The notes beneath the pieces were generated by a model. It did no database searches. It saw only the letters and a program-made list of their open reading frames with translations, and was not told the DNA's origin. Of a stretch of 5,920 nt of DNA, positions 1-5,920 are shown piece by piece. A program made the position numbers and the translations under genes. How positions within the stretch are numbered: the first letter of the stretch is position 1; every line of letters starts with the position of its first letter. This DNA is from a virus. The stretch lies in the IMG/VR virus record IMGVR_UViG_3300005319_000012, positions 1 through 5,920 of that record; one strand, written 5' to 3'.

Positions 1-547
1 CCATTACGCCTCTTCCTGCTAGTGTTCCTAGTGGTTGTTCTCCGTCTCCTGCTTCTGCGTTGCTTATTACTTCTTGAAACACTAATTCTTTTATTAGTCC
101 GCCCATGTACATTGGTGTTGTTGCTAATGTTACTCTGTCGTGCATGTAAACTGCTCTTTGCCAATCATCGTATGTCCCTCCGCTTATTGCAATTCTATTT
201 AGCATTTCATATACTTTTGTTGCTAATTGAAATGTGTCGATTGAAAAATTTCCATCTGATGTGTCTATTGCAGTTATTGCGTTTATTCCGTTTTCTCCAT
301 CAATCCATTCCGTTTGCATCCAATTATTAAATAAATCGCTTTGATACGTTTTTATTGCTAATCCCTCTTGTGTTGTTAGTTTTGCCCACGTTTTATTTGT
401 TCCGCTCCCTAGTTCTAGTAGTGGTAGGTTGTATGGTTCTAAGTTTGTGTTTTTACTTATTGTGAATGGAGACGATTGTTTTGTGTATATTAATATGTTT
501 TCCCTCATGTCATCTAAGTTTTTTAGTGGGAATGTTTTTATTTTTGG
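1..547. repeat. Terminal redundancy, copy 1. Identical to 5374-5920. This is the signature of a circular 5373-nt genome written past its junction, not a biological repeat.
   Basis: Position 1 (ccattacgcctcttcctgct...) aligns to 5374, and the last bases of the window (...ttatttttgg) align to 538-547. The ORF-track entries 22..330 and 5296..5703 end in the same peptide, and 330+5373=5703. Every stretch I compared by eye was identical. Confidence 0.95.
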
Positions 548-1435
548 TGGTCTTGCTTCTTTTGCATCTATGTAGCTCCAATTCATTATTTTAATTGCTG
601 AAAACTCTCTTTTTGCACTTCCTAGTGTTGTTTCTGTTGGGTATTCTGATATTGTTTCATAAATATCTGTTAGTCTTGCTGTTACCCCTGTTGATAGTCT
701 TACAGATATTTCACTTATGTCTGGTCTTTCCCCTGTGAATCTTACATACATGGCTGTTCCTCTTGCAATTGTGAATTCTGCATTTCCTGTGTTTTTTGGT
801 ATTGTTGTGAATGTTCCTCCTGAATCACCGATAATTTCAGTTACTGTTTCTACTATTGCTCTTCCGTGTATTACTGCGCCTTTTTCTTCTTGTTTGTTTG
901 CATAGTAATTTTTGTATGTGTCCCAATATGCTAGGTATGTTACTGCATTAAATTCTCTTAATACTTTTCCATCTACTCCGCTTCCTCCGCCTACGCCTCT
1001 TATATTTAAATAGCTAAATATGCAGCTTGGGTTTATTTGTTGATTGTCGGGGTCTAGTCTTTTGTTTATTGCGTTTGATACTATTTCTATTTGCGGTAGT
1101 TTTACCGTATCCATGTGGTTTCCTATTCCTAGTTTATTGTTGTGTAGTTGTCCTTGATATAGCCTTATTGGTGCTAAGAATATGTCCGCTTGTACTTTAT
1201 AGCTTCCGAATAGAGGTCCTATTGTTGGATGTGTTTTGATGTCAATATCTAGGTTTATATCGAATGTATCGCCGGGTAAGGCCACTTCTGTCATGAATGG
1301 TACTAGTGTTCCAGCGGCCATTGTACTTCTCCATATATAACCTAAATCATGGGTCGATCTTTCGTAGTTTTTTAATTCTACTTTCATTTTTTTTCCTGAC
1401 CCTAGTCTTTCTCCTCCTAATGTTACTTTTTGCAT
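1..1435 (-). CDS. VP1: Major capsid protein (Microviridae VP1 / F-like), N-terminal ~478 codons. The gene continues across the circle junction into 5373->4841. The joined gene is 1968 nt, 655 aa.
   Basis: My own minus-strand translation from the ATG at 1435-1433 is stop-free down to position 1: MQKVTLGGERLGSGKKMKVELKNYERSTHDLGYIWRSTMAAGTLVPFMTEVALPGDTFDINLDIDIKTHPTIGPLFGSYKVQADIFLAPIRLY...NAVTYLAYWDTYKNYYANKQEE... It is missing from the ORF track because its stop lies beyond the window edge. It is in frame with the 346-aa ORF: M at 5881 equals 508, and 1435-508=927, which is 309 codons. The RSTHDL, LPGDTF, GSYK and YWDxYKNYY motifs match what I remember of microvirus capsid proteins. An alternative start is the ATG at 1387 (MKVELKNY...). 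Confidence 0.9.
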   Translation of the reverse strand, partial: MQKVTLGGERLGSGKKMKVELKNYERSTHDLGYIWRSTMAAGTLVPFMTEVALPGDTFDINLDIDIKTHPTIGPLFGSYKVQADIFLAPIRLYQGQLHNNKLGIGNHMDTVKLPQIEIVSNAINKRLDPDNQQINPSCIFSYLNIRGVGGGSGVDGKVLREFNAVTYLAYWDTYKNYYANKQEEKGAVIHGRAIVETVTEIIGDSGGTFTTIPKNTGNAEFTIARGTAMYVRFTGERPDISEISVRLSTGVTARLTDIYETISEYPTETTLGSAKREFSAIKIMNWSYIDAKEARPPKIKTFPLKNLDDMRENILIYTKQSSPFTISKNTNLEPYNLPLLELGSGTNKTWAKLTTQEGLAIKTYQSDLFNNWMQTEWIDGENGINAITAIDTSDGNFSIDTFQLATKVYEMLNRIAISGGTYDDWQRAVYMHDRVTLATTPMYMGGLIKELVFQEVISNAEAGDGEQPLGTLAGRGVM

Positions 1436-1440
1436 TTTTT

Positions 1441-1719
1441 TTATTTATTAAATTTTCTACTTTCTTCTACCATTACCCCTATTATTGTTATCATGAACTT
1501 CCAATTTATTCCACTTACCATTTTTTCTAGTTCGTGTAGGTTTTCGTGTTCGTCTGTTATTTGGTATTTTCCCATTGTTAAGAACCATCCTCCGTCTTTT
1601 TTTACCGCTACGAATGACCCCTCTGCTAATTCTACTCTTTCAATCAGACTCCCAGAGTCTTGTTTGCCTGATTCTTTCGCATTCGTTAATGTGTTTAACA
1701 ATTCCGTATTTTTCCCCAT
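1441..1719 (-). CDS. Hypothetical 92-aa protein immediately upstream of the capsid gene. By position only it is analogous to a scaffolding-type gene. The C-terminus has a short hydrophobic stretch (WKFMITIIGVMV).
   Basis: ATG at 1719-1717 (cat on the + strand) and TAA at 1441-1443. Codons after the overlap region follow the genome-wide A-ending habit. The stop is joined to the capsid start by TAA-AAAAA-ATG. Confidence 0.7.
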   Translation of the reverse strand: MGKNTELLNTLTNAKESGKQDSGSLIERVELAEGSFVAVKKDGGWFLTMGKYQITDEHENLHELEKMVSGINWKFMITIIGVMVEESRKFNK

Positions 1720-1855
1720 TTGTATATTCTTTTATTTCTGATTTACTATTTGTTTTTTTTGTTATGTATTTTCTTTCTTTGAGGCTTTTACTTATAACCT
1801 CTCCTGTTTCTATGTCTACGTACGTTGTTGTTGCGTACCATTTCATTTTAGCCAT
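1640..1855 (-). CDS. Hypothetical 71-aa basic protein (MAKMKWYATTTYVDIETGEVI...). It overlaps the next gene by 80 nt in another frame.
   Basis: ATG at 1855-1853 and TGA at 1640-1642, the only non-TAA stop among the genes I call. A-ending codon use is strong in the non-overlapping part. Confidence 0.65.
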   Translation of the reverse strand: MAKMKWYATTTYVDIETGEVISKSLKERKYITKKTNSKSEIKEYTNGEKYGIVKHINECERIRQTRLWESD

Positions 1856-1875
1856 CTCTGATCATTTTTTTTTAT

Positions 1876-1965
1876 TTAATCTAATTTGTTGTATACTTCT
1901 AGTAGTATTCCTACTGTTATTATTATTAGCACTATTCCTGTTACTAATGACGCTAGTTCTGTCAT
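1876..1965 (-). CDS. Mini-protein of 29 aa with a single predicted transmembrane helix: MTELASLVTGIVLIIITVGILLEVYNKLD.
   Basis: Hand translation. The ATG at 1965-1963 directly abuts the TAA of the preceding mini-ORF (GAT TAA ATG). The stop TAA is at 1876-1878. It has about 20 consecutive hydrophobic residues and A-ending codons throughout (ACA GAA CTA ... GGA ATA CTA CTA GAA GTA). It falls below the ORF-track length cutoff. Confidence 0.6.
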   Translation of the reverse strand: MTELASLVTGIVLIIITVGILLEVYNKLD

Positions 1966-2049
1966 TTAATCTTTTCTTGTGTTTATTAATGTGTATAGTA
2001 TTATTGTTATTCCTACTATTCCTATTACTCCCAGTATTGTCGCTTCCAT
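1966..2049 (-). CDS. Mini-protein of 27 aa with a single predicted transmembrane helix: MEATILGVIGIVGITIILYTLINTRKD.
   Basis: Hand translation. The ATG at 2049-2047 sits 5 A residues after the TAA of the upstream gene (TAA-AAAAA-ATG). The stop TAA is at 1966-1968. It has a hydrophobic core, a basic tail and A-ending codons. Together with its neighbour it fills an otherwise unexplained 198-nt gap in a compact genome. Confidence 0.6.
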   Translation of the reverse strand: MEATILGVIGIVGITIILYTLINTRKD

Positions 2050-2054
2050 TTTTT

Positions 2055-2267
2055 TTATAGGTTAAAGTAGTTTTCTCTTATTCTCATTAGGATAGCTTGT
2101 AGTTCGTCTCTATCTTCTTCACTTATGAAGTGCGTTGAGTCTATTGCGTTTACTGCTCCTACAAATCTTTTTATGTCTGCTGCTGTTCCTTTTTTGTTGA
2201 AATTTTTACTTTCTTTTTTAGTTTTAGCTCCTTGAGTTTCTACATTTTTATTTTCGTTATTTTCCAT
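2055..2267 (-). CDS. Hypothetical 70-aa protein with a Lys-rich N-terminus (MENNENKNVETQGAKTKKESKNFNKKG...). By position it is the first gene after rep (VP5-like position in gokushoviruses). Function unknown.
   Basis: ORF track 2055..2273. I checked the listed start: 2271-2273 is caa on the + strand, so it is TTG, not ATG. The first ATG is two codons downstream at 2267-2265. The stop TAA is at 2055-2057. Confidence 0.7.
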   Translation of the reverse strand: MENNENKNVETQGAKTKKESKNFNKKGTAADIKRFVGAVNAIDSTHFISEEDRDELQAILMRIRENYFNL

Positions 2268-2270
2268 ATT

Positions 2271-2301
2271 CAAATATAGGTATTATTTTTATATTTCCAA
2301 A
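2271..2301 (-). promoter_or_regulatory. Candidate promoter in the rep / 70-aa-gene intergenic spacer. It reads TTTG-N19-TATATTTG (Bacteroides-type -33/-7 consensus) and also TTGGAA-N16-TATATT (sigma70-like).
   Basis: The minus strand reads ...AAAATTTGGAAATATAAAAATAATACCTATATTTGAATATGGAA. TTTG is at 2301-2298 and TATATTTG at 2278-2271, with exactly 19 nt between them. These T-rich motifs sit in a strand that is otherwise very T-poor. Caveat: the predicted start site would fall at or next to the ATG at 2267, implying a leaderless or very short leader. Confidence 0.4.
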
Positions 2302-2317
2302 TTTTTTTTCATTTTTT

Positions 2318-3361
2318 TTAATCCCATTCTTTTGACGGTTGGATTAACTGCTCTCTGCCCTCGGGGGGGCAGTCCCCCGCCTGCGGAGCAATCTTTTCTT
2401 TTATTATCCTTTCTTCTATTTTTAGCATTCTTCTTTGATTTTCGTACTCCTTCTTGTTCCAGTCTATTGTATCGTCTCCGTACCCTAATCTTTTGTTTTT
2501 TTCTCTGTAGTATTCTAGTAGTTTGTAGTATTCTTCTTCTCCTTCTGTTACGTCTACTTTTTCTCCCATTACCCACCTTTCTTCCTTATCTAATTTCATT
2601 AGCCATAGTTTTTCTCTTTCTTCATCTGTGTATATTTTATTTCTCCAATATATTGGCATTGCTATTTTATGCCCTGATCTCGTTGTGTATGTTTCGTTTG
2701 TGTCTTTTCCTTTGAATTTATTTTTATTGCTATCTATTCTCTCTATATACCCTGCCCCTATTCCTGCACTTGTTAGTATTTTTGCTGTGTAGTGTTCGTG
2801 ATCTTTGTCTTGTTTTGTTACGTATTTTGTTAAGTAGTTTACTGTTTTTTCGCTTACGTAGTTTTCTTTTTTTTCTCCCTTTCCTTTCCACACGAACCCG
2901 TATTGCCAGTGTTTTTCTACTTCGTCTAAGCTTTCGTTCGTCCATACTATTCCGTGTAAGTGTAGGTTTTCCGTTCCGTTATGCCCGAGTTCTGTTATTA
3001 ACCAGTGTCTTAGGCTTTTTTTATATTTCTTTCTCCATCTTTCTAGAAATCTTCTTACTGCTAGTGTAGCTATTGCGTTGTCTAAATTATACCCTTCTAG
3101 TGTTTCTATTTCTTTACTTAGGTCTGTTATACTTTCGTTACTGAATGTTAGCGTTATGAATTTTCCGTTTTTGTTATGCCTTACATCTTCTAGTAGTCTT
3201 ACTTGCCATTCTCTCGATTTTTGTTTTCTGCATTCTATGCATTTTCCGCATCCTACTGGTACTGCTAATACTCTTTTATCAGAAACGGCAGGTATTACCC
3301 CGCCGTTCTTTTTGGTTTCTCCGTATTTTCTGTTCCTTATTAATTTTGGATATAGGCACAT
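2318..3361 (-). CDS. VP4: Replication initiation protein (Microviridae VP4 / phiX174 gpA-like HUH rolling-circle endonuclease), 347 aa.
   Basis: ORF track. It has the N-terminal MCLYPKLI and CGKCIECR cysteine motif. RCR motif 1 is FITLTF (res 68-73). Motif 2 (HUH) is HLHGIVW (res 134-140). Motif 3 is YLTKYVTK (res 176-183), with two Tyr spaced like YVAKYVNK of phiX174 gpA. The ATG at 3361 lies 1 nt after the VP2 stop (TAA-A-ATG). Confidence 0.93.
   Translation of the reverse strand: MCLYPKLIRNRKYGETKKNGGVIPAVSDKRVLAVPVGCGKCIECRKQKSREWQVRLLEDVRHNKNGKFITLTFSNESITDLSKEIETLEGYNLDNAIATLAVRRFLERWRKKYKKSLRHWLITELGHNGTENLHLHGIVWTNESLDEVEKHWQYGFVWKGKGEKKENYVSEKTVNYLTKYVTKQDKDHEHYTAKILTSAGIGAGYIERIDSNKNKFKGKDTNETYTTRSGHKIAMPIYWRNKIYTDEEREKLWLMKLDKEERWVMGEKVDVTEGEEEYYKLLEYYREKNKRLGYGDDTIDWNKKEYENQRRMLKIEERIIKEKIAPQAGDCPPEGREQLIQPSKEWD
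2350..2389 (-). other. GC-rich (32/40 G+C) imperfect stem-loop with a C7 homopolymer, embedded in the last ~25 codons of rep. Candidate replication, priming or packaging signal.
   Basis: The coding strand reads GCTCCGCAGGCGGGGGACTGCCCCCCCGAGGGCAGAGAGC. Possible pairings are GCTC/GAGC at the ends, GGGGG/CCCCC around ACTG, and CTGCCC/GGGCAG. The flanking sequence is AT-rich, and the local codons (CCG CAG GCG GGG GAC TGC CCC CCC GAG GGC) break the A-ending rule. Confidence 0.6.
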
Positions 3362-3362
3362 T

Positions 3363-4199
3363 TTATTGCTCTCCCACTCTTTTTAGTTGTTTGTTTCTGT
3401 CGCTTTTGTTTATTTGGAATATTGCTTCTATAGCATCATCTATTGTTCTTCCTGCTACGTTCATTAAGTTAGGATACGCTTTGTCCATTTCTGCTCTAAA
3501 TTTTTCTATTCTTAGCTTTTGTTCGTTTTGGTCTAATCCTTTCCATCCTTGAGCTACTTGCGCTGCCATTTGTTTTATTCTTTCTTTGTCTACTTCTATT
3601 CCGACTTTTTTAGCGTCATTTTCTATTTCCGCTCCTATGCTTTCTGCTTTTATTCTTGTTAATCTATCTTCTAACCCTCTGTTTGCTTCTTGTGACTCTG
3701 CTGCTGTTTTTGTGAATTTTTCCCCTTCTGTTAGTGTTTGTGCATTTTTTAAGTCTCTTTCGCTTCCTGCTACTTCTACTCCTGCTTTCTTGTTTGCTGT
3801 GTCTGCTTCTATGTTCTCTTTTTGTGCGTTCATTAATGCCATTTGCATTCCCATCCCCATCTCTCCTCCTCCTGTCGGTGCTGCTCCTCCGCTTACCGCT
3901 CCCCCTGCTACTCCTCCCATTGTTGCTCCTCCTGTTCCTCCCATTCCGTATAGTAGTGCTGGGTTTAGTCCTGCTTTTTTTAAGTGTTCTACTTGTGCTC
4001 CGTAGTTTGTTTTGTTCCACGAATCTAATTGTAATTCGTGTGCATTGCTTGCCAGTTCTTTCTGTCCTTTTATTTGTAATCCTTGCAGTTTTTCTTGCAT
4101 TTGGTATTGTCTTTGGTCGTTGTATTTTCCTAGCGCCATTCCTAGCGCTGATCCTATTATTGCCGACCCTGCTCCTTCTGCTAATTTTCCTAGTCCCAT
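3363..4199 (-). CDS. VP2: Minor capsid / DNA pilot protein (Microviridae VP2, functional analogue of phiX174 H), 278 aa.
   Basis: ORF track. It carries the KKAGLNPALLYG motif (3945-3974), which I recognise as typical of microvirus VP2. The N-terminal segment is glycine-zipper-like (GAGSAIIGSALGMALG). A Gly-rich linker spans res 85-118. The C-terminal half is long, charged and coiled-coil-like. Its position directly upstream of VP4 also fits. Confidence 0.85.
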   Translation of the reverse strand: MGLGKLAEGAGSAIIGSALGMALGKYNDQRQYQMQEKLQGLQIKGQKELASNAHELQLDSWNKTNYGAQVEHLKKAGLNPALLYGMGGTGGATMGGVAGGAVSGGAAPTGGGEMGMGMQMALMNAQKENIEADTANKKAGVEVAGSERDLKNAQTLTEGEKFTKTAAESQEANRGLEDRLTRIKAESIGAEIENDAKKVGIEVDKERIKQMAAQVAQGWKGLDQNEQKLRIEKFRAEMDKAYPNLMNVAGRTIDDAIEAIFQINKSDRNKQLKRVGEQ

Positions 4200-4200
4200 T

Positions 4201-4284
4201 TTATTTTACGCTTATTGTTATGTTGTAATTTATTTTATTTCCTGATATTGATTCCTCTAGCATTGTTCTTAATTTTCTTTCCAT
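4201..4284 (-). CDS. Possible 27-aa ORF (MERKLRTMLEESISGNKINYNITISVK) abutting the VP2 start. It is the ATG-initiated tail of a 73-codon stop-free, coding-like frame (4425->4204).
   Basis: Hand translation. ATG at 4284-4282, TAA at 4201-4203, then A, then the VP2 ATG. This is the same TAA-A-ATG junction as VP2/VP4. A-ending codons are present. It is short and the T-poor strand makes open frames cheap, so support is weak. Confidence 0.3.
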   Translation of the reverse strand: MERKLRTMLEESISGNKINYNITISVK

Positions 4285-4434
4285 CGTCTTTAATGCTTTT
4301 CTTATCGTTCTTTCTTCAATATAGGTTAACTTTCTTCTTTTCTCTTTGCTTTCTTTTATTATTTTTGAGTTAGTTTCTGTGTCTTTTAGACTTATTTTGT
4401 AATTCTCTATTTTTTCGCTTCTTTTTTATTAAAA

Positions 4435-4485
4435 AAAGAGTGGTACACTTAGTTCATAATATAGAACACATGCGTACCACTCTTT
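4435..4485 (-). terminator. Hairpin with a 12-bp perfect stem and 27-nt loop, followed by a T-run on the coding strand. Candidate intrinsic terminator of the capsid operon and/or origin hairpin.
   Basis: The minus strand reads TAA CACGTT AAAGAGTGGTAC-GCATGTGTTCTATATTATGAACTAAGT-GTACCACTCTTT TTTTAATAAAAAAG. The arms are 4474-4485 and 4435-4446. The hairpin starts 6 nt after the stop of the 111-aa ORF. The loop has an inner GTTC/GAAC mini-stem around TATATTAT. The loop is large for a textbook terminator. Confidence 0.5.
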
Positions 4486-4491
4486 AACGTG

Positions 4492-4827
4492 TTAATTTTC
4501 AGTTCCTTGTGTTGACTCGGCTCCGCCGTTTTTATCTTTGTTTATATTGATTATTTTTGCTTCTTTTTCAGCCATTCTGTCTGCTCTTTTTGCTGTGTGT
4601 GTTTTACTTACTTTGTCCATTGCGTCGATCGCGACTTCGAATCTATCCGTTCTTACGTTGTATCCTGCTAATACTCCTTCTTTCCTTTCTGTATATATCA
4701 TCGGAGCTCCGTCTGTTATTGGCTCTTTGTTGTTTACAACTCTTTCGATTTTTTGTTCTATAGTTTCTCCCTCTAACGAGTCGTTTTCGTTTATTGAGGT
4801 TTCTTGCATTTTGTTTTGTTTGTACAT
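4492..4827 (-). CDS. Small 111-aa protein downstream of the capsid gene, with an acidic N-terminus and the motif IYTERKEGVLAGYNVRTDRFEVAIDAMD. Function unassigned, possibly scaffolding or assembly.
   Basis: ORF track. The ATG at 4827-4825 follows the VP1 stop by 13 nt (TAA AAAAAAGAAAATA ATG). TAA at 4492-4494. Genome-typical codon use. The IYTER...RTDRF-type motif seems familiar from small ORFs of uncultured microviruses, but I cannot verify that here. Confidence 0.75.
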   Translation of the reverse strand: MYKQNKMQETSINENDSLEGETIEQKIERVVNNKEPITDGAPMIYTERKEGVLAGYNVRTDRFEVAIDAMDKVSKTHTAKRADRMAEKEAKIININKDKNGGAESTQGTEN

Positions 4828-4840
4828 TATTTTCTTTTTT

Positions 4841-5920
4841 TTATAGATTTGGCATTATTTTTGCACTCATTTTTCTTCTTGCTGTTATGTCTACTCCTAT
4901 TTGTGCCCAAAAGTTTTGTGCGTCTCTACTTGTTTGTGCGAATATGTGATTGAATTTTACTGGGTCTATATATGTTGTTAGGTCTTTTATTTGTCCTGTT
5001 GCTCCATCCATTTCGTATCTTCTGTTTAGAGTCATGAACATTTCATTGTCTGCTATGGCAAAATTCCCTCTTGTTTGGTTTACATTTGTCATATAGTTTA
5101 GCCATGCTGGTTGTTTCCCTGCACTTCTGAATTCTATTTTTGTTGGATTCCCCATTGTTATGTTTGTGTCAAATGCTGCCATTTGGTCGGTTATTAGGTC
5201 TTGGAATCCTATTTGATCTAACGCTGGTTTATGGAAATCGTCCATTGTTTTTAGATTTGTGTCCCATTTGTTTCCTTGACTGTAGTCGACTCTAGGTGTT
5301 AGGCTTATTATTCCCATTATGTAGCTCGGTTCGTCTACTTTTATTGTCACGTGGCCTCCTTTTCTTTTTCCTGCCATTACGCCTCTTCCTGCTAGTGTTC
5401 CTAGTGGTTGTTCTCCGTCTCCTGCTTCTGCGTTGCTTATTACTTCTTGAAACACTAATTCTTTTATTAGTCCGCCCATGTACATTGGTGTTGTTGCTAA
5501 TGTTACTCTGTCGTGCATGTAAACTGCTCTTTGCCAATCATCGTATGTCCCTCCGCTTATTGCAATTCTATTTAGCATTTCATATACTTTTGTTGCTAAT
5601 TGAAATGTGTCGATTGAAAAATTTCCATCTGATGTGTCTATTGCAGTTATTGCGTTTATTCCGTTTTCTCCATCAATCCATTCCGTTTGCATCCAATTAT
5701 TAAATAAATCGCTTTGATACGTTTTTATTGCTAATCCCTCTTGTGTTGTTAGTTTTGCCCACGTTTTATTTGTTCCGCTCCCTAGTTCTAGTAGTGGTAG
5801 GTTGTATGGTTCTAAGTTTGTGTTTTTACTTATTGTGAATGGAGACGATTGTTTTGTGTATATTAATATGTTTTCCCTCATGTCATCTAAGTTTTTTAGT
5901 GGGAATGTTTTTATTTTTGG
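4841..5920 (-). CDS. VP1: Major capsid protein VP1, C-terminal part (stop TAA at 4841-4843). It is open upstream to the window end. 5374-5920 duplicates 1-547.
   Basis: ORF track 4841..5881 (346 aa, MRENILIYTKQ...AKIMPNL). The frame stays open to 5920 and is contiguous with the 1..1435 segment through the circular junction. This is the largest ORF of the genome, as expected for the capsid gene. Confidence 0.9.
   Translation of the reverse strand, partial: PKIKTFPLKNLDDMRENILIYTKQSSPFTISKNTNLEPYNLPLLELGSGTNKTWAKLTTQEGLAIKTYQSDLFNNWMQTEWIDGENGINAITAIDTSDGNFSIDTFQLATKVYEMLNRIAISGGTYDDWQRAVYMHDRVTLATTPMYMGGLIKELVFQEVISNAEAGDGEQPLGTLAGRGVMAGKRKGGHVTIKVDEPSYIMGIISLTPRVDYSQGNKWDTNLKTMDDFHKPALDQIGFQDLITDQMAAFDTNITMGNPTKIEFRSAGKQPAWLNYMTNVNQTRGNFAIADNEMFMTLNRRYEMDGATGQIKDLTTYIDPVKFNHIFAQTSRDAQNFWAQIGVDITARRKMSAKIMPNL
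5374..5920. repeat. Terminal redundancy, copy 2 (identical to 1-547).
   Basis: Same comparison as for 1-547. The offset is 5373. Confidence 0.95.

Follow-up and report, generated by a model that had tools for sequence, protein, structure and literature searches.

The A-rich, T-poor sense strand of a circular microvirus genome is a clade-wide trait independent of the host

How a microvirus comes to carry genes on a strand rich in A and starved of T, the reverse of the bias of phiX174, is the question raised by the window, i.e., the whole stretch of 5,920 nt analysed from record IMGVR_UViG_3300005319_000012. The window corresponds to one complete circular microvirus genome plus a 547-nt overlap. 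Positions 1-547 are identical to positions 5374-5920, and the unit is therefore 5,373 nt long; this size agrees with the first-pass annotation. The record is deposited as the reverse complement, the coding strand being the reverse complement of the given strand. Every homology-supported gene (Pfam and PHROG profile matches) lies on the minus strand, as had been claimed for all convincing genes. The features are as follows.

1..5373, minus strand: complete circular genome unit (base counts and ORFs on the circularised unit)
5374..5920, no strand: terminal redundancy, an exact copy of 1-547 and the assembly overlap of the circular genome (547-nt terminal direct repeat)
1..1435, minus strand: major capsid protein, N-terminal 478 codons, starting at 1435 and running over the circle junction into 5373..4841 (Pfam Phage_F 2.4e-10, phrog_514 3.9e-41)
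4841..5373, minus strand: major capsid protein, C-terminal part and TAA stop, the stop codon ending at 4841 (ORF)
4492..4827, minus strand: 111-aa ORF downstream of the capsid gene, without Pfam or PHROG match
4416..4486, minus strand: conserved structured non-coding element (covariance model, compensatory changes)
3363..4199, minus strand: DNA pilot protein, 278 aa (PHROG pilot families, best 4.8e-09)
2318..3361, minus strand: rolling-circle replication initiator (Rep), 347 aa (PF23343 1.1e-10, phrog_942 6.7e-27)
2055..2267, minus strand: 70-aa ORF (weak phrog_22439 match)
1876..2049, minus strand: two putative tiny hydrophobic ORFs, back-to-back, of 27 and 29 aa, both with TAA stop (read from the sequence)
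1855..1640, minus strand: small ORF of 71 aa, TGA stop, overlapping the 92-aa ORF
1719..1441, minus strand: small ORF of 92 aa, TAA stop, overlapping the 71-aa ORF

On the circularised unit, the major capsid protein is 655 aa long. The Rep translation shows an HUH-type motif (HLHGIVW) and a two-tyrosine motif (YLTKYVTK). Relatives also have a small ORF in the position of the 111-aa ORF, and the 71-aa and 92-aa ORFs (1441..1855) match no Pfam or PHROG family. As in Bacteroidota, no Shine-Dalgarno motif is present in the leaders of the genes, which are rich in A.

The given strand of the whole window contains 2812 T, 1203 C, 1000 A and 905 G, i.e., an AT skew of -0.475 and a GC skew of -0.141, and the AT skew stays between -0.38 and -0.65 in all 500-nt windows. 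The large excess of T over A seen at first reading is thereby confirmed, down to the hand counts (24 T and 4 A in 1-60; 31 T and 4 A in 3781-3840). The coding (minus) strand, indeed the A-rich and T-starved one, holds 47.8% A, 20.5% G, 16.7% T and 15.1% C (68% purine) in a genome of 35% GC. The skew is strongest at synonymous sites. Third codon positions are A 0.603, C 0.167, G 0.119 and T 0.110, and four-fold sites are A 0.763 (76-79%), G 0.125, T 0.059 and C 0.054, with A at 0.81 and T at 0.04 in the capsid gene, 0.80 and 0.04 in the pilot gene, and A at 0.71 in the Rep gene. ATA accounts for 99 of 119 Ile codons, AGA for 71 of 79 Arg codons, CTA and TTA for 103 of 110 Leu codons and GGA for 98 of 138 Gly codons, and two-fold boxes end in A 326 times versus G 29 times. 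A therefore dominates third positions, but at 60% its use falls short of the "near-universal" A-ending first described. Because C exceeds T in two-fold boxes (211 versus 114) despite 35% GC, the avoidance of T is real, and the frequent CTA and ATA codons reflect it rather than host-type optimisation, as had been proposed; TT dinucleotides show no specific depletion (observed/expected 1.10). TAA is the dominant stop, in six of seven called ORFs, or eight of nine with the two tiny ORFs, rather than in nine of ten. Contrary to the first reading, stops are not scarce in all three sense frames: the sense +1 frame is stop-dense (0.085-0.196 stops per codon), and only the sense +2 frame, at 0.022-0.045 within the large genes, and the antisense frames, at 0.032-0.058, are poor in stops.

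The skew is a real, inherited lineage trait common to the whole clade and not a peculiarity of the window genome, because every close relative has it. Among 88 relatives with at least 52% capsid identity, the coding strand averages A 0.448, T 0.200, AT skew +0.385 and purine 0.654 ± 0.020; AT skew spans +0.09 to +0.55, with the window in 11th place among the 89 genomes. It is +0.11 to +0.51 in 25 of 25 IMG/VR relatives, +0.28 to +0.45 in GenBank relatives and +0.37 on average in gut Alpavirinae-like relatives, and Bacteroidales prophages also carry an A-rich, T-poor sense strand. The first-pass annotation had suggested an unusual regime; as something specific to the window this does not hold, the same skew being routine across the 88 genomes of the closest clade, an outcome which that annotation itself had named as counting against novelty. 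No published description of the pattern was found in a literature search. The virus belongs to a large Bacteroidota-associated clade comprising Alpavirinae-like viruses and an environmental and gut sister group. Purine load is conserved, purine content being the composition measure of smallest variance across the 88 genomes, and variation lies mainly along an exchange between C and T, which alone makes up the first principal component (63% of variance), with correlations of -0.82 between C and T and -0.36 between C and G. Three members (L183, L294 and L267) are T-rich, two of them being C-starved on the sense strand. Substitution fluxes polarised with an outgroup balance each other, i.e., composition is stationary.

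At four-fold sites, the clade is the mirror image of phiX-like phages and of the Bacteroides fragilis microvirus phiHBP1. In the case of Bullavirinae (phiX174 and relatives), T is 0.305 and A 0.244 genome-wide, and four-fold sites range over T 0.49-0.62 and A 0.08-0.13; their four-fold coding-strand composition (T 0.49, C 0.21, G 0.17, A 0.13) is almost that of the gut relatives' non-coding strand (T 0.49, C 0.28, G 0.16, A 0.07). The differences among genes are mirrored as well, with stronger enrichment of the dominant base in the capsid and pilot genes than in the Rep gene. The T-rich coding strand that had been stated for phiX174-type viruses is found in phiX174 and other Bullavirinae, yet T-richness is not a family rule, because gokushoviruses (n=143) form a continuum of four-fold AT skew from -0.9 to +0.63. 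Since this continuum includes the cultured, A-rich phiMH2K, an A-rich sense strand does occur and requires no change of polarity.

We lean, by a little, towards normal polarity combined with a clade-specific, strand-biased substitution pressure. To our knowledge, the sense strand is the packaged one in every characterised microvirus, and it would still be packaged here, the clade probably occupying one extreme of a continuum of strand-biased substitution that spans the family. Sense-strand changes towards A (G to A, pyrimidine to purine) would be favoured, while T and C would be kept low; the purine-to-pyrimidine ratio would be held near-constant clade-wide, and the C-to-T balance would drift between lineages, as expected with ordinary cytosine decay of the sense strand on top. 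The pressure may be clade-specific selection or a replication-error asymmetry, candidate agents being unequal fidelity of complementary-strand and rolling-circle synthesis, or selection against pyrimidines in the virion strand. Damage to ssDNA by deamination of cytosine, oxidation of guanine, or loss of a purine with A then inserted raises T in each case, and we know of no lesion pathway that would raise A on an exposed ssDNA strand, so that normal polarity requires an agent outside these pathways. T enrichment of the exposed strand has been described in E. coli ssDNA phages (PMC4032129). The compositional mirroring of T-rich microviruses, gene gradient included, also counts against normal polarity.

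That mirroring, which extends to the rank order of the bases, is what a flipped polarity would produce: Rep would nick and displace the antisense strand, the T-rich non-coding strand would be packaged, and the skew of the clade would be the ordinary T enrichment of exposed ssDNA by the known damage pathways, viewed from the other side. We regard this as rather unlikely. The host independence of the skew fits it, and so does the clade's most conserved non-coding element, which reads ACTTGATATATAAGAATAC on the non-coding strand and resembles the phiX174 viral-strand origin ACTTG^ATATTAATAACAC at phiX 4299-4328 (alignment score 12, shuffle mean 8.1, p about 0.02), CTTGATA occurring on that strand in 74 of 89 subclade genomes and 13 of 16 gut genomes. 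However, in the window this motif has the variant form GTTCATA, and the window's own element shows no significant similarity to the phiX origin in alignments against shuffles. The element at 4416..4486 contains a hairpin that had been singled out as strong (stem 4485-4474 with 4446-4435, loop of 27 nt), followed by a second, overlapping AT-rich hairpin. A covariance model matches it in nearly all clade members and prophages, every time in coding-strand orientation, with 91% of stem cells paired and compensatory changes; it has no Rfam match. The conserved hairpin folds on the coding strand, where the stem retains 42 G-T cells versus 6 A-C cells. This speaks against flipped polarity, but a coding-strand hairpin could act in mRNA and would then be uninformative on the virion strand. 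Further against a flip, the main compositional axis is C-T on the sense strand, where some members are C-starved, and replication would probably meet transcription head-on. Several features thus mirror T-rich microviruses, yet the sign of the skew is no reliable polarity marker within Gokushovirinae, because it varies continuously among close relatives. A virion-strand determination for any clade member was not found in the accessible literature, and the paper on phiHBP1, a phage outside the clade, contains no strand-polarity test (PMC13064476). We know of no precedent for packaging of the antisense strand in Microviridae.

It seems improbable that the skew arises from selection against intrastrand pairing, under which an excess of A or of T alike would keep the strand unfolded and so ease packaging, ejection or translation. 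Strong skews of both signs do occur in microviruses, the A-rich leaders are compatible with it, and the coding strand of the window folds weakly, as had been anticipated: its DNA folding energy is -0.043 kcal/mol/nt, whereas a GC-matched random sequence with symmetric strands reaches -0.062 and phiX174 -0.093. However, the native window folds no less than its own shuffles (-0.040), and low self-pairing is not general, L027 (-0.071 versus -0.048) and L017 (-0.105 versus -0.081) folding more than theirs and L017 as strongly as a strand-symmetric control (-0.096). Gokushovirus skews, moreover, pass continuously through zero and are not bimodal.

The skew is virus-intrinsic and not copied from the host. 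On Bacteroidales contigs, three integrated relatives form distinct ~6-kb islands (AT skew mostly +0.2 to +0.5) between flanks of about ±0.2, and their four-fold sites (A 0.45-0.55, T 0.10-0.20) differ from those of adjoining host genes (A 0.12-0.28, T 0.19-0.35). Adaptation of A-ending codons to the tRNAs or preferred codons of an AT-rich host is very improbable and already contradicted in relatives: adjoining host genes do show a mild coding-strand excess of A over T at two of three prophage loci, but they use ATA and AGA/AGG far less than prophage genes, C exceeds T in two-fold boxes at 35% GC, which no symmetric AT pressure explains, and neither those genes, nor the B. fragilis dsDNA phage B40-8 (four-fold A 0.30, T 0.37; T 0.41 in structural genes), nor phiHBP1 (A 0.13, T 0.65; T preferred at 0.65-0.76) has the skew, so the mundane host-matching alternative first offered is rejected.

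Among known systems, the closest are uncultured microviruses with 55-63% capsid identity (IMG/VR contigs such as L245, L001 and L246; GenBank MN311493, Antarctic microvirus TYR_006_V_SP_13, MG883728 and MT135417), which share the A-rich, T-poor sense strand and, in those with an annotation or inspected by us, the order of the genes (capsid, small ORF, pilot, Rep, small ORFs); the closest IMG/VR contigs also carry the non-coding element. No relative above ~63% capsid identity was found in viral, metagenome or GenBank collections, and the sole megablast match covers 245 nt at 77.5%. Alpavirinae-type microviruses of Bacteroidales (Krupovic and Forterre 2011, PMC3091885), Family 5 of Kirchberger et al. 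2022 (PMC9239249), are represented here by gut contigs L017-L023 and integrated copies (Dysgonomonas sp. 521, a Bacteroides MAG and a Phocaeicola MAG) rather than by named reference Alpavirinae. Their capsid protein is likewise large (about 660-690 aa), their sense strand also has more A than T (AT skew +0.30 to +0.41), and the element sits in the same position, but capsid identity is only 38-49%, GC is higher (about 47%) and some copies are integrated. phiX174 and other Bullavirinae have a circular genome of similar size, an F-type capsid protein, a two-tyrosine HUH initiator and all genes on one strand, with the opposite compositional bias and no counterpart of the element. Bacteroides phage phiHBP1 (PV598014), the first cultured Bacteroidota microvirus (PMC13064476), has the gene order of the window and a host order common with the gut relatives, yet its capsid is only 22-29% identical over local matches, its T-rich sense strand mirrors that of the window, and it lacks the element. 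Bdellovibrio phage phiMH2K, of a different subfamily and also without the element, has an A-rich, G-poor sense strand (genome AT skew +0.29; four-fold A 0.43, T 0.26, G 0.06), and A over T is therefore not unique to the clade, although the bias is far milder (four-fold purine ~0.50 versus 0.82-0.91 here). Vertebrate mitochondrial DNA also has an A-enriched sense strand with C at least equal to T in two-fold boxes, the signature expected from C-to-T and A-to-G changes on the complementary strand; this is an analogy only, the window being enriched in purines overall, with four-fold G above C and no replication-linked gradient.

The strand asymmetry of the window is real and extreme, yet it is ordinary for the clade of related A-rich microviruses. 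The base counts made by hand in the first-pass annotation are exact, and the sense strand of the 5,373-nt circular unit contains 47.8% A, 20.5% G, 16.7% T and 15.1% C, i.e., a purine fraction of 0.682. On the given strand, the AT skew in 500-nt windows ranges from -0.38 to -0.65. The bias is strongest at synonymous sites: third codon positions are 0.603 A, 0.167 C, 0.119 G and 0.110 T, and four-fold degenerate sites reach 0.763-0.79 A, with 0.125 G, 0.059 T and 0.054 C. Isoleucine is encoded by ATA in 99 of 119 codons, arginine by AGA in 71 of 79, leucine by CTA or TTA in 103 of 110, and six of seven ORFs end in TAA (eight of nine when two tiny ORFs are included). In two-fold boxes, A greatly exceeds G, and C also exceeds T despite a GC content of 35%, an excess that is unattainable by any symmetric AT pressure. 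Stop codons had been described as scarce in all three sense frames, which is wrong: the +1 frame carries 0.085-0.196 per codon. Low densities are confined to the +2 frame (0.022-0.045 in the large genes) and to antisense frames (0.032-0.058), which accounts for the spurious ORFs rich in Arg/Lys and in Leu/Phe. On genomes of the clade, gene callers and strand-orientation heuristics that were calibrated on T-rich ssDNA phages will thus yield long spurious ORFs. The expectation that the coding strand barely self-pairs is borne out by its folding energy of -0.043 kcal/mol/nt (DNA parameters), compared with -0.062 for strand-symmetric sequence of the same GC content; phiX174 gives -0.093 on the same measure. 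A second hairpin, at 661-711 of the given strand within the minus-strand capsid coding sequence, has 16-nt arms that are 88% complementary and a 19-nt loop.

The window is a complete microvirus genome deposited as its reverse complement. Its first 547 bases recur exactly at its end as an assembly overlap, and the resulting unit lies within the range of circular Microviridae genomes (about 4-6.5 kb). On the circularised reverse complement, an ORF of 655 aa encodes an F/VP1-type capsid protein (Pfam Phage_F, 40.3 bits, cut-off 25; phrog_514, major head protein, 3.9e-41), which is missing from the linear ORF list because it spans the circle junction; tblastn with this protein matches 470 microvirus records. 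The 347-aa Rep is a rolling-circle initiator (PF23343, 42.2 bits, cut-off 27.8; phrog_942, 6.7e-27), in whose translation an HUH motif (HLHGIVW) and a two-tyrosine motif (YLTKYVTK) were assigned by eye, and the 278-aa DNA pilot protein matches several PHROG pilot families (best 4.8e-09). Gene leaders are A-rich and devoid of Shine-Dalgarno motifs, which is consistent with a putative Bacteroidota host. The features beyond the capsid gene are as follows.

3′ of the capsid gene, same strand: 111-aa ORF, 278-aa pilot gene, 347-aa Rep gene and several small ORFs
1966-2049, minus strand: tiny ORF encoding the hydrophobic peptide MEATILGVIGIVGITIILYTLINTRKD
1876-1965, minus strand: tiny ORF encoding the hydrophobic peptide MTELASLVTGIVLIIITVGILLEVYNKLD, adjoining the 1966-2049 ORF

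The two hydrophobic peptides may be membrane or lysis peptides; the stretch is otherwise non-coding in appearance.

Within the family, the window differs from Bullavirinae, as its Phage_F match is limited to residues 22-97, a scan seeded with phiX174 F does not return its relatives, and its composition is the opposite of the T-rich Bullavirinae sense strand. Its capsid protein is also longer than Gokushovirinae VP1 (about 530-565 aa), and scans seeded with Chp2 and phiMH2K VP1 return 160 loci, none in common with the relatives of the window; this exclusion is based on capsid length and search overlap. Integrated relatives with 38-49% capsid identity, found in Dysgonomonas, Bacteroides and Phocaeicola contigs, carry the same non-coding element as the window, which is thus a candidate member of the Alpavirinae-like clade of Bacteroidales microviruses. 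The window belongs to the A-rich clade as defined here, i.e., by a purine content of about 0.65, dominance of A at four-fold sites and a conserved element that separates the capsid module from the pilot gene. Two further members occur in other assemblies, namely a complete microvirus-sized contig inside an Acinetobacter lwoffii isolate assembly (L186, NZ_JACWEU010000076.1) and a fragment inside a Bathyarchaeum MAG (L187, JAOZIF010000191.1); both probably reflect contamination or mis-binning and not true hosts.

The nearest public genomes share 55-63% capsid identity with the window. Searches of viral, metagenome, genome and GenBank collections gave nothing closer, and its own neighbours therefore provide no mutation spectrum. 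Across the 88 genomes of its subclade (at least 52% capsid identity), mean composition is A 0.448, T 0.200, C 0.146 and G 0.207, with an AT skew of +0.385 (0.09 to 0.55) and a purine content of 0.654 ± 0.020. Gut Alpavirinae-like contigs (n = 15-16, 41-47% identity) have an AT skew of about +0.37. The skew is no peculiarity of this genome: it has the same sign in all relatives and is routine in the closest clade, in which the window ranks 11th of 89 in AT skew. This is an outcome that the first-pass annotation had named as refuting novelty. Some IMG/VR contigs (L248, L256 and L310, of about 8 kb, L253 and L303) exceed the length of a single genome or contain two copies of the non-coding element, which suggests concatemeric or redundantly assembled circles.

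Set against other Microviridae, the clade occupies one extreme of a wide range.

Base frequencies at four-fold degenerate sites of the capsid gene, sense strand (phiHBP1, all genes)
Window subclade: A 0.72, C 0.04, G 0.12, T 0.11
Gut Alpavirinae-like: A 0.49, C 0.16, G 0.28, T 0.07
Bullavirinae: A 0.13, C 0.21, G 0.17, T 0.49
Chp2-like gokushoviruses: A 0.14, C 0.31, G 0.20, T 0.35
phiMH2K-like gokushoviruses: A 0.36, C 0.19, G 0.16, T 0.29
phiHBP1 (cultured, B. fragilis): A 0.13, C 0.10, G 0.12, T 0.65

In base frequencies, the coding strand of Bullavirinae is nearly identical to the opposite, non-coding strand in gut relatives (T 0.49, C 0.28, G 0.16, A 0.07). The gradient among genes is mirrored as well: four-fold A in the clade is 0.72 in the capsid gene, 0.71 in the pilot gene and 0.63 in Rep, while four-fold T is 0.62 in F and 0.48 in A of Bullavirinae, and 0.71 (capsid), 0.76 (pilot) and 0.59 (Rep) in phiHBP1. 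Between these extremes, the four-fold AT skew of 143 gokushoviruses varies continuously from below -0.8 to +0.63; in the cultured phiMH2K, four-fold frequencies are A 0.43, T 0.26 and G 0.06. The T-richness that the first-pass annotation ascribed to phiX174-type coding strands thus holds for ssDNA coliphages, whose T-bias is documented (PMC4032129), but not as a rule for the family, of which it is only one end of a continuous range.

Variation inside the clade follows a different axis. Purine content has the smallest variance across the 88 genomes, in which C correlates with T at r = -0.82 and with G at r = -0.36, and 63% of the variance falls on a first principal component that consists purely of sense-strand C-T exchange. 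As transitions leave purine content unchanged, the transversion balance is stable and the C-to-T balance of the sense strand labile, the pattern expected if an exposed sense strand undergoes cytosine decay to a variable extent. Three subclade members (L183, L294 and L267) have T at least equal to A, or about equal, at four-fold sites (T 0.38-0.53); in L183 and L294, four-fold C is almost absent (0.01-0.02) and GC skew reaches +0.6. These genomes look like lineages in which cytosine decay has run to exhaustion. Direct counts of substitutions say less. Tip singletons in sets of close relatives, counted to separate mutation from selection, seemed to show that T was gained too often (92 vs 29) and A lost too often. 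They were discarded because of ascertainment bias: states that are rare and evolve fast seldom stay the same in every other tip, so that singletons over-count common-to-rare changes. Once polarised by an outgroup, the counts in closer sets balance each other (32 C to T against 31 T to C, 70 G to A against 66 A to G) and show only a stationary composition, with G to A about 1.9 times C to T per site.

A conserved non-coding element of about 70 nt lies between the capsid module and the pilot gene and includes the strong hairpin (4485-4435) singled out in the first-pass annotation.

4416-4486 of the window, minus strand: element
4478..4463 of the window, minus strand: its 16-nt core, without mismatch
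6359-6434 of L182 (Dysgonomonas sp. 521 locus): element
12447-12522 of L184 (locus of a relative): element

Its core in the clade reads GGTACGCATGTnTTCT..., the conserved loop of the coding strand GGTACGCATGTGTTCTATATTATGAACTAAGT, and the coding-strand consensus AAGCGGTAC-GCATGTnTTCTTATATATCAAG...GTACCGCTTTT-AAAAAA-GCGCGAAAA. With up to three mismatches, the 16-nt core occurs at about 100 loci, on the coding strand except for two chance-level matches, one of them in phiMH2K. A covariance model also finds the element in prophages and gut relatives; what it finds in gokushoviruses (a single hit, E = 0.62) is not credible, and Bullavirinae and phiHBP1 give no credible hit either. Rfam has no match within the window, element included. 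The outer stem covaries, with 91% of cells paired (29-59% in slid controls) and compensatory changes at four pairs. Its non-Watson-Crick cells comprise 42 G-T and 6 A-C, so folding takes place on the coding strand, either in mRNA or in sense ssDNA. The 3′ arm can instead pair with a downstream copy of the 5′ arm, all three segments co-varying, so that the element consists of two mutually exclusive hairpins with a common middle arm and a near-invariant loop, GCATGTnTTCT.... The element is confined to the A-rich clade and may serve as a replication origin or as a transcription attenuator.

On the non-coding strand, the consensus loop reads ACTTGATATATAAGAATAC and is similar to the phiX174 origin ACTTG^ATATTAATAACAC (phiX174 sequence verified), at a marginal p of about 0.02 by shuffling. 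The loop of the window, with the variant GTTCATA, is not significantly similar, and no stretch of the window matches the phiX174 origin itself with up to three mismatches. CTTGATA was rejected as a family-wide origin marker: in many gokushoviruses (loci L112-L176), CTTGATAT lies on the non-coding strand inside VP1 genes, where it stems from the codons of the conserved capsid peptide FGYQERYAEYR and is not an origin, a case that calls for caution in motif-based origin hunting. Another hairpin, perfect and G-rich/C-rich (AAACGGGGGG-loop-CCCCCCGTTT), occurs in several relatives with (C)TGATAA after it.

L003: 4476-4501
L006: 3777-3802
L027: 3339-3364, in the 5′ part of the Rep gene
L250: 3856-3879
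L246: 871-896

The window lacks this hairpin because GGA and CCA codons are used there.

Indirect evidence from the sequences on which strand is packaged is mixed. Altogether, we lean towards a model in which the packaged strand has the normal, mRNA-sense polarity of Microviridae and a clade-specific pressure drives it towards A and purines. This model is supported by the continuum seen in gokushoviruses, by the C-T axis and the C-starved genomes, and by the hairpin that folds on the coding strand; it is opposed because, to our knowledge, no lesion pathway enriches A on the exposed strand. That difficulty disappears if the antisense, T-rich strand is the one packaged throughout the clade, in the Alpavirinae-like phages of gut Bacteroidales too, with the conserved loop as origin, as a known process would then account for every mirrored detail and the phiX174-origin-like motif does sit on the non-coding strand. 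However, such a reversal has no precedent, the sign of the skew changes between closely related gokushoviruses, and the origin-like motif is weak evidence that the window itself does not share, so that we regard it as rather unlikely. If true, it would reveal the first negative-sense Microviridae, their A-rich genes being the shadow of the usual T-enrichment of ssDNA.

The remaining probability falls to structure avoidance, host effects and causes not thought of. Structure avoidance beyond composition is not general, as two relatives (L027 and the gut contig L017) fold more strongly than their own shuffles. Dipyrimidine steps make up 9.3% of the sense strand vs 45.8% of its complement in absolute terms, but specific avoidance of thymine dimers is rejected, TT not being depleted relative to base composition (observed/expected 1.10). 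Translational selection, suggested by a capsid gene more A-biased than Rep, was likewise rejected, since T-rich microviruses show the same gradient for T and the gradient is thus not specific to A. As for the host, a profile of clade capsid proteins located integrated relatives in Dysgonomonas sp. 521, which is an isolate (NZ_QVMO01000010.1; prophage at about 2,300-9,000 of L182), and in a Bacteroides and a Phocaeicola MAG. In these contigs, AT skew is about ±0.2 in the flanks and mostly +0.2 to +0.5 over the roughly 6 kb that each prophage occupies.

Four-fold degenerate sites of prophages, hosts and a dsDNA phage
Prophage genes, three loci: A 0.45-0.55, T 0.10-0.20
Adjoining host genes: A 0.12-0.28, T 0.19-0.35
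B. fragilis dsDNA phage B40-8: A 0.30, T 0.37

Host codon matching is rejected as the cause, as adjoining host genes, B40-8 and phiHBP1 are all free of the bias: the skew belongs to the virus and is not taken from the host.

We found no description of an A-rich microvirus clade, although absence from the searchable literature is no proof of novelty. Of base composition, the global microvirus survey gives GC content only (PMC9239249), strand polarity was not part of the phiHBP1 study (PMC13064476), and the A-rich pattern does not come up in a general study of strand-specific viral substitution, which covers one microvirus data set (PMC12483504). This genome alone matters little, being one more member, of typical composition, of a populous and already sequenced group. 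What deserves attention is that, inside a single virus family, a whole clade has the bias at synonymous sites reversed: either a strand-biased pressure has gone unrecognised, or the packaged strand is other than expected, and both can be tested cheaply. The usual account has cytosine decay pushing the packaged coding strand of ssDNA phages towards T. In this clade, which includes abundant phages of gut Bacteroidales, synonymous sites show the exact reverse whatever the host, and gokushoviruses fill the range between the two.
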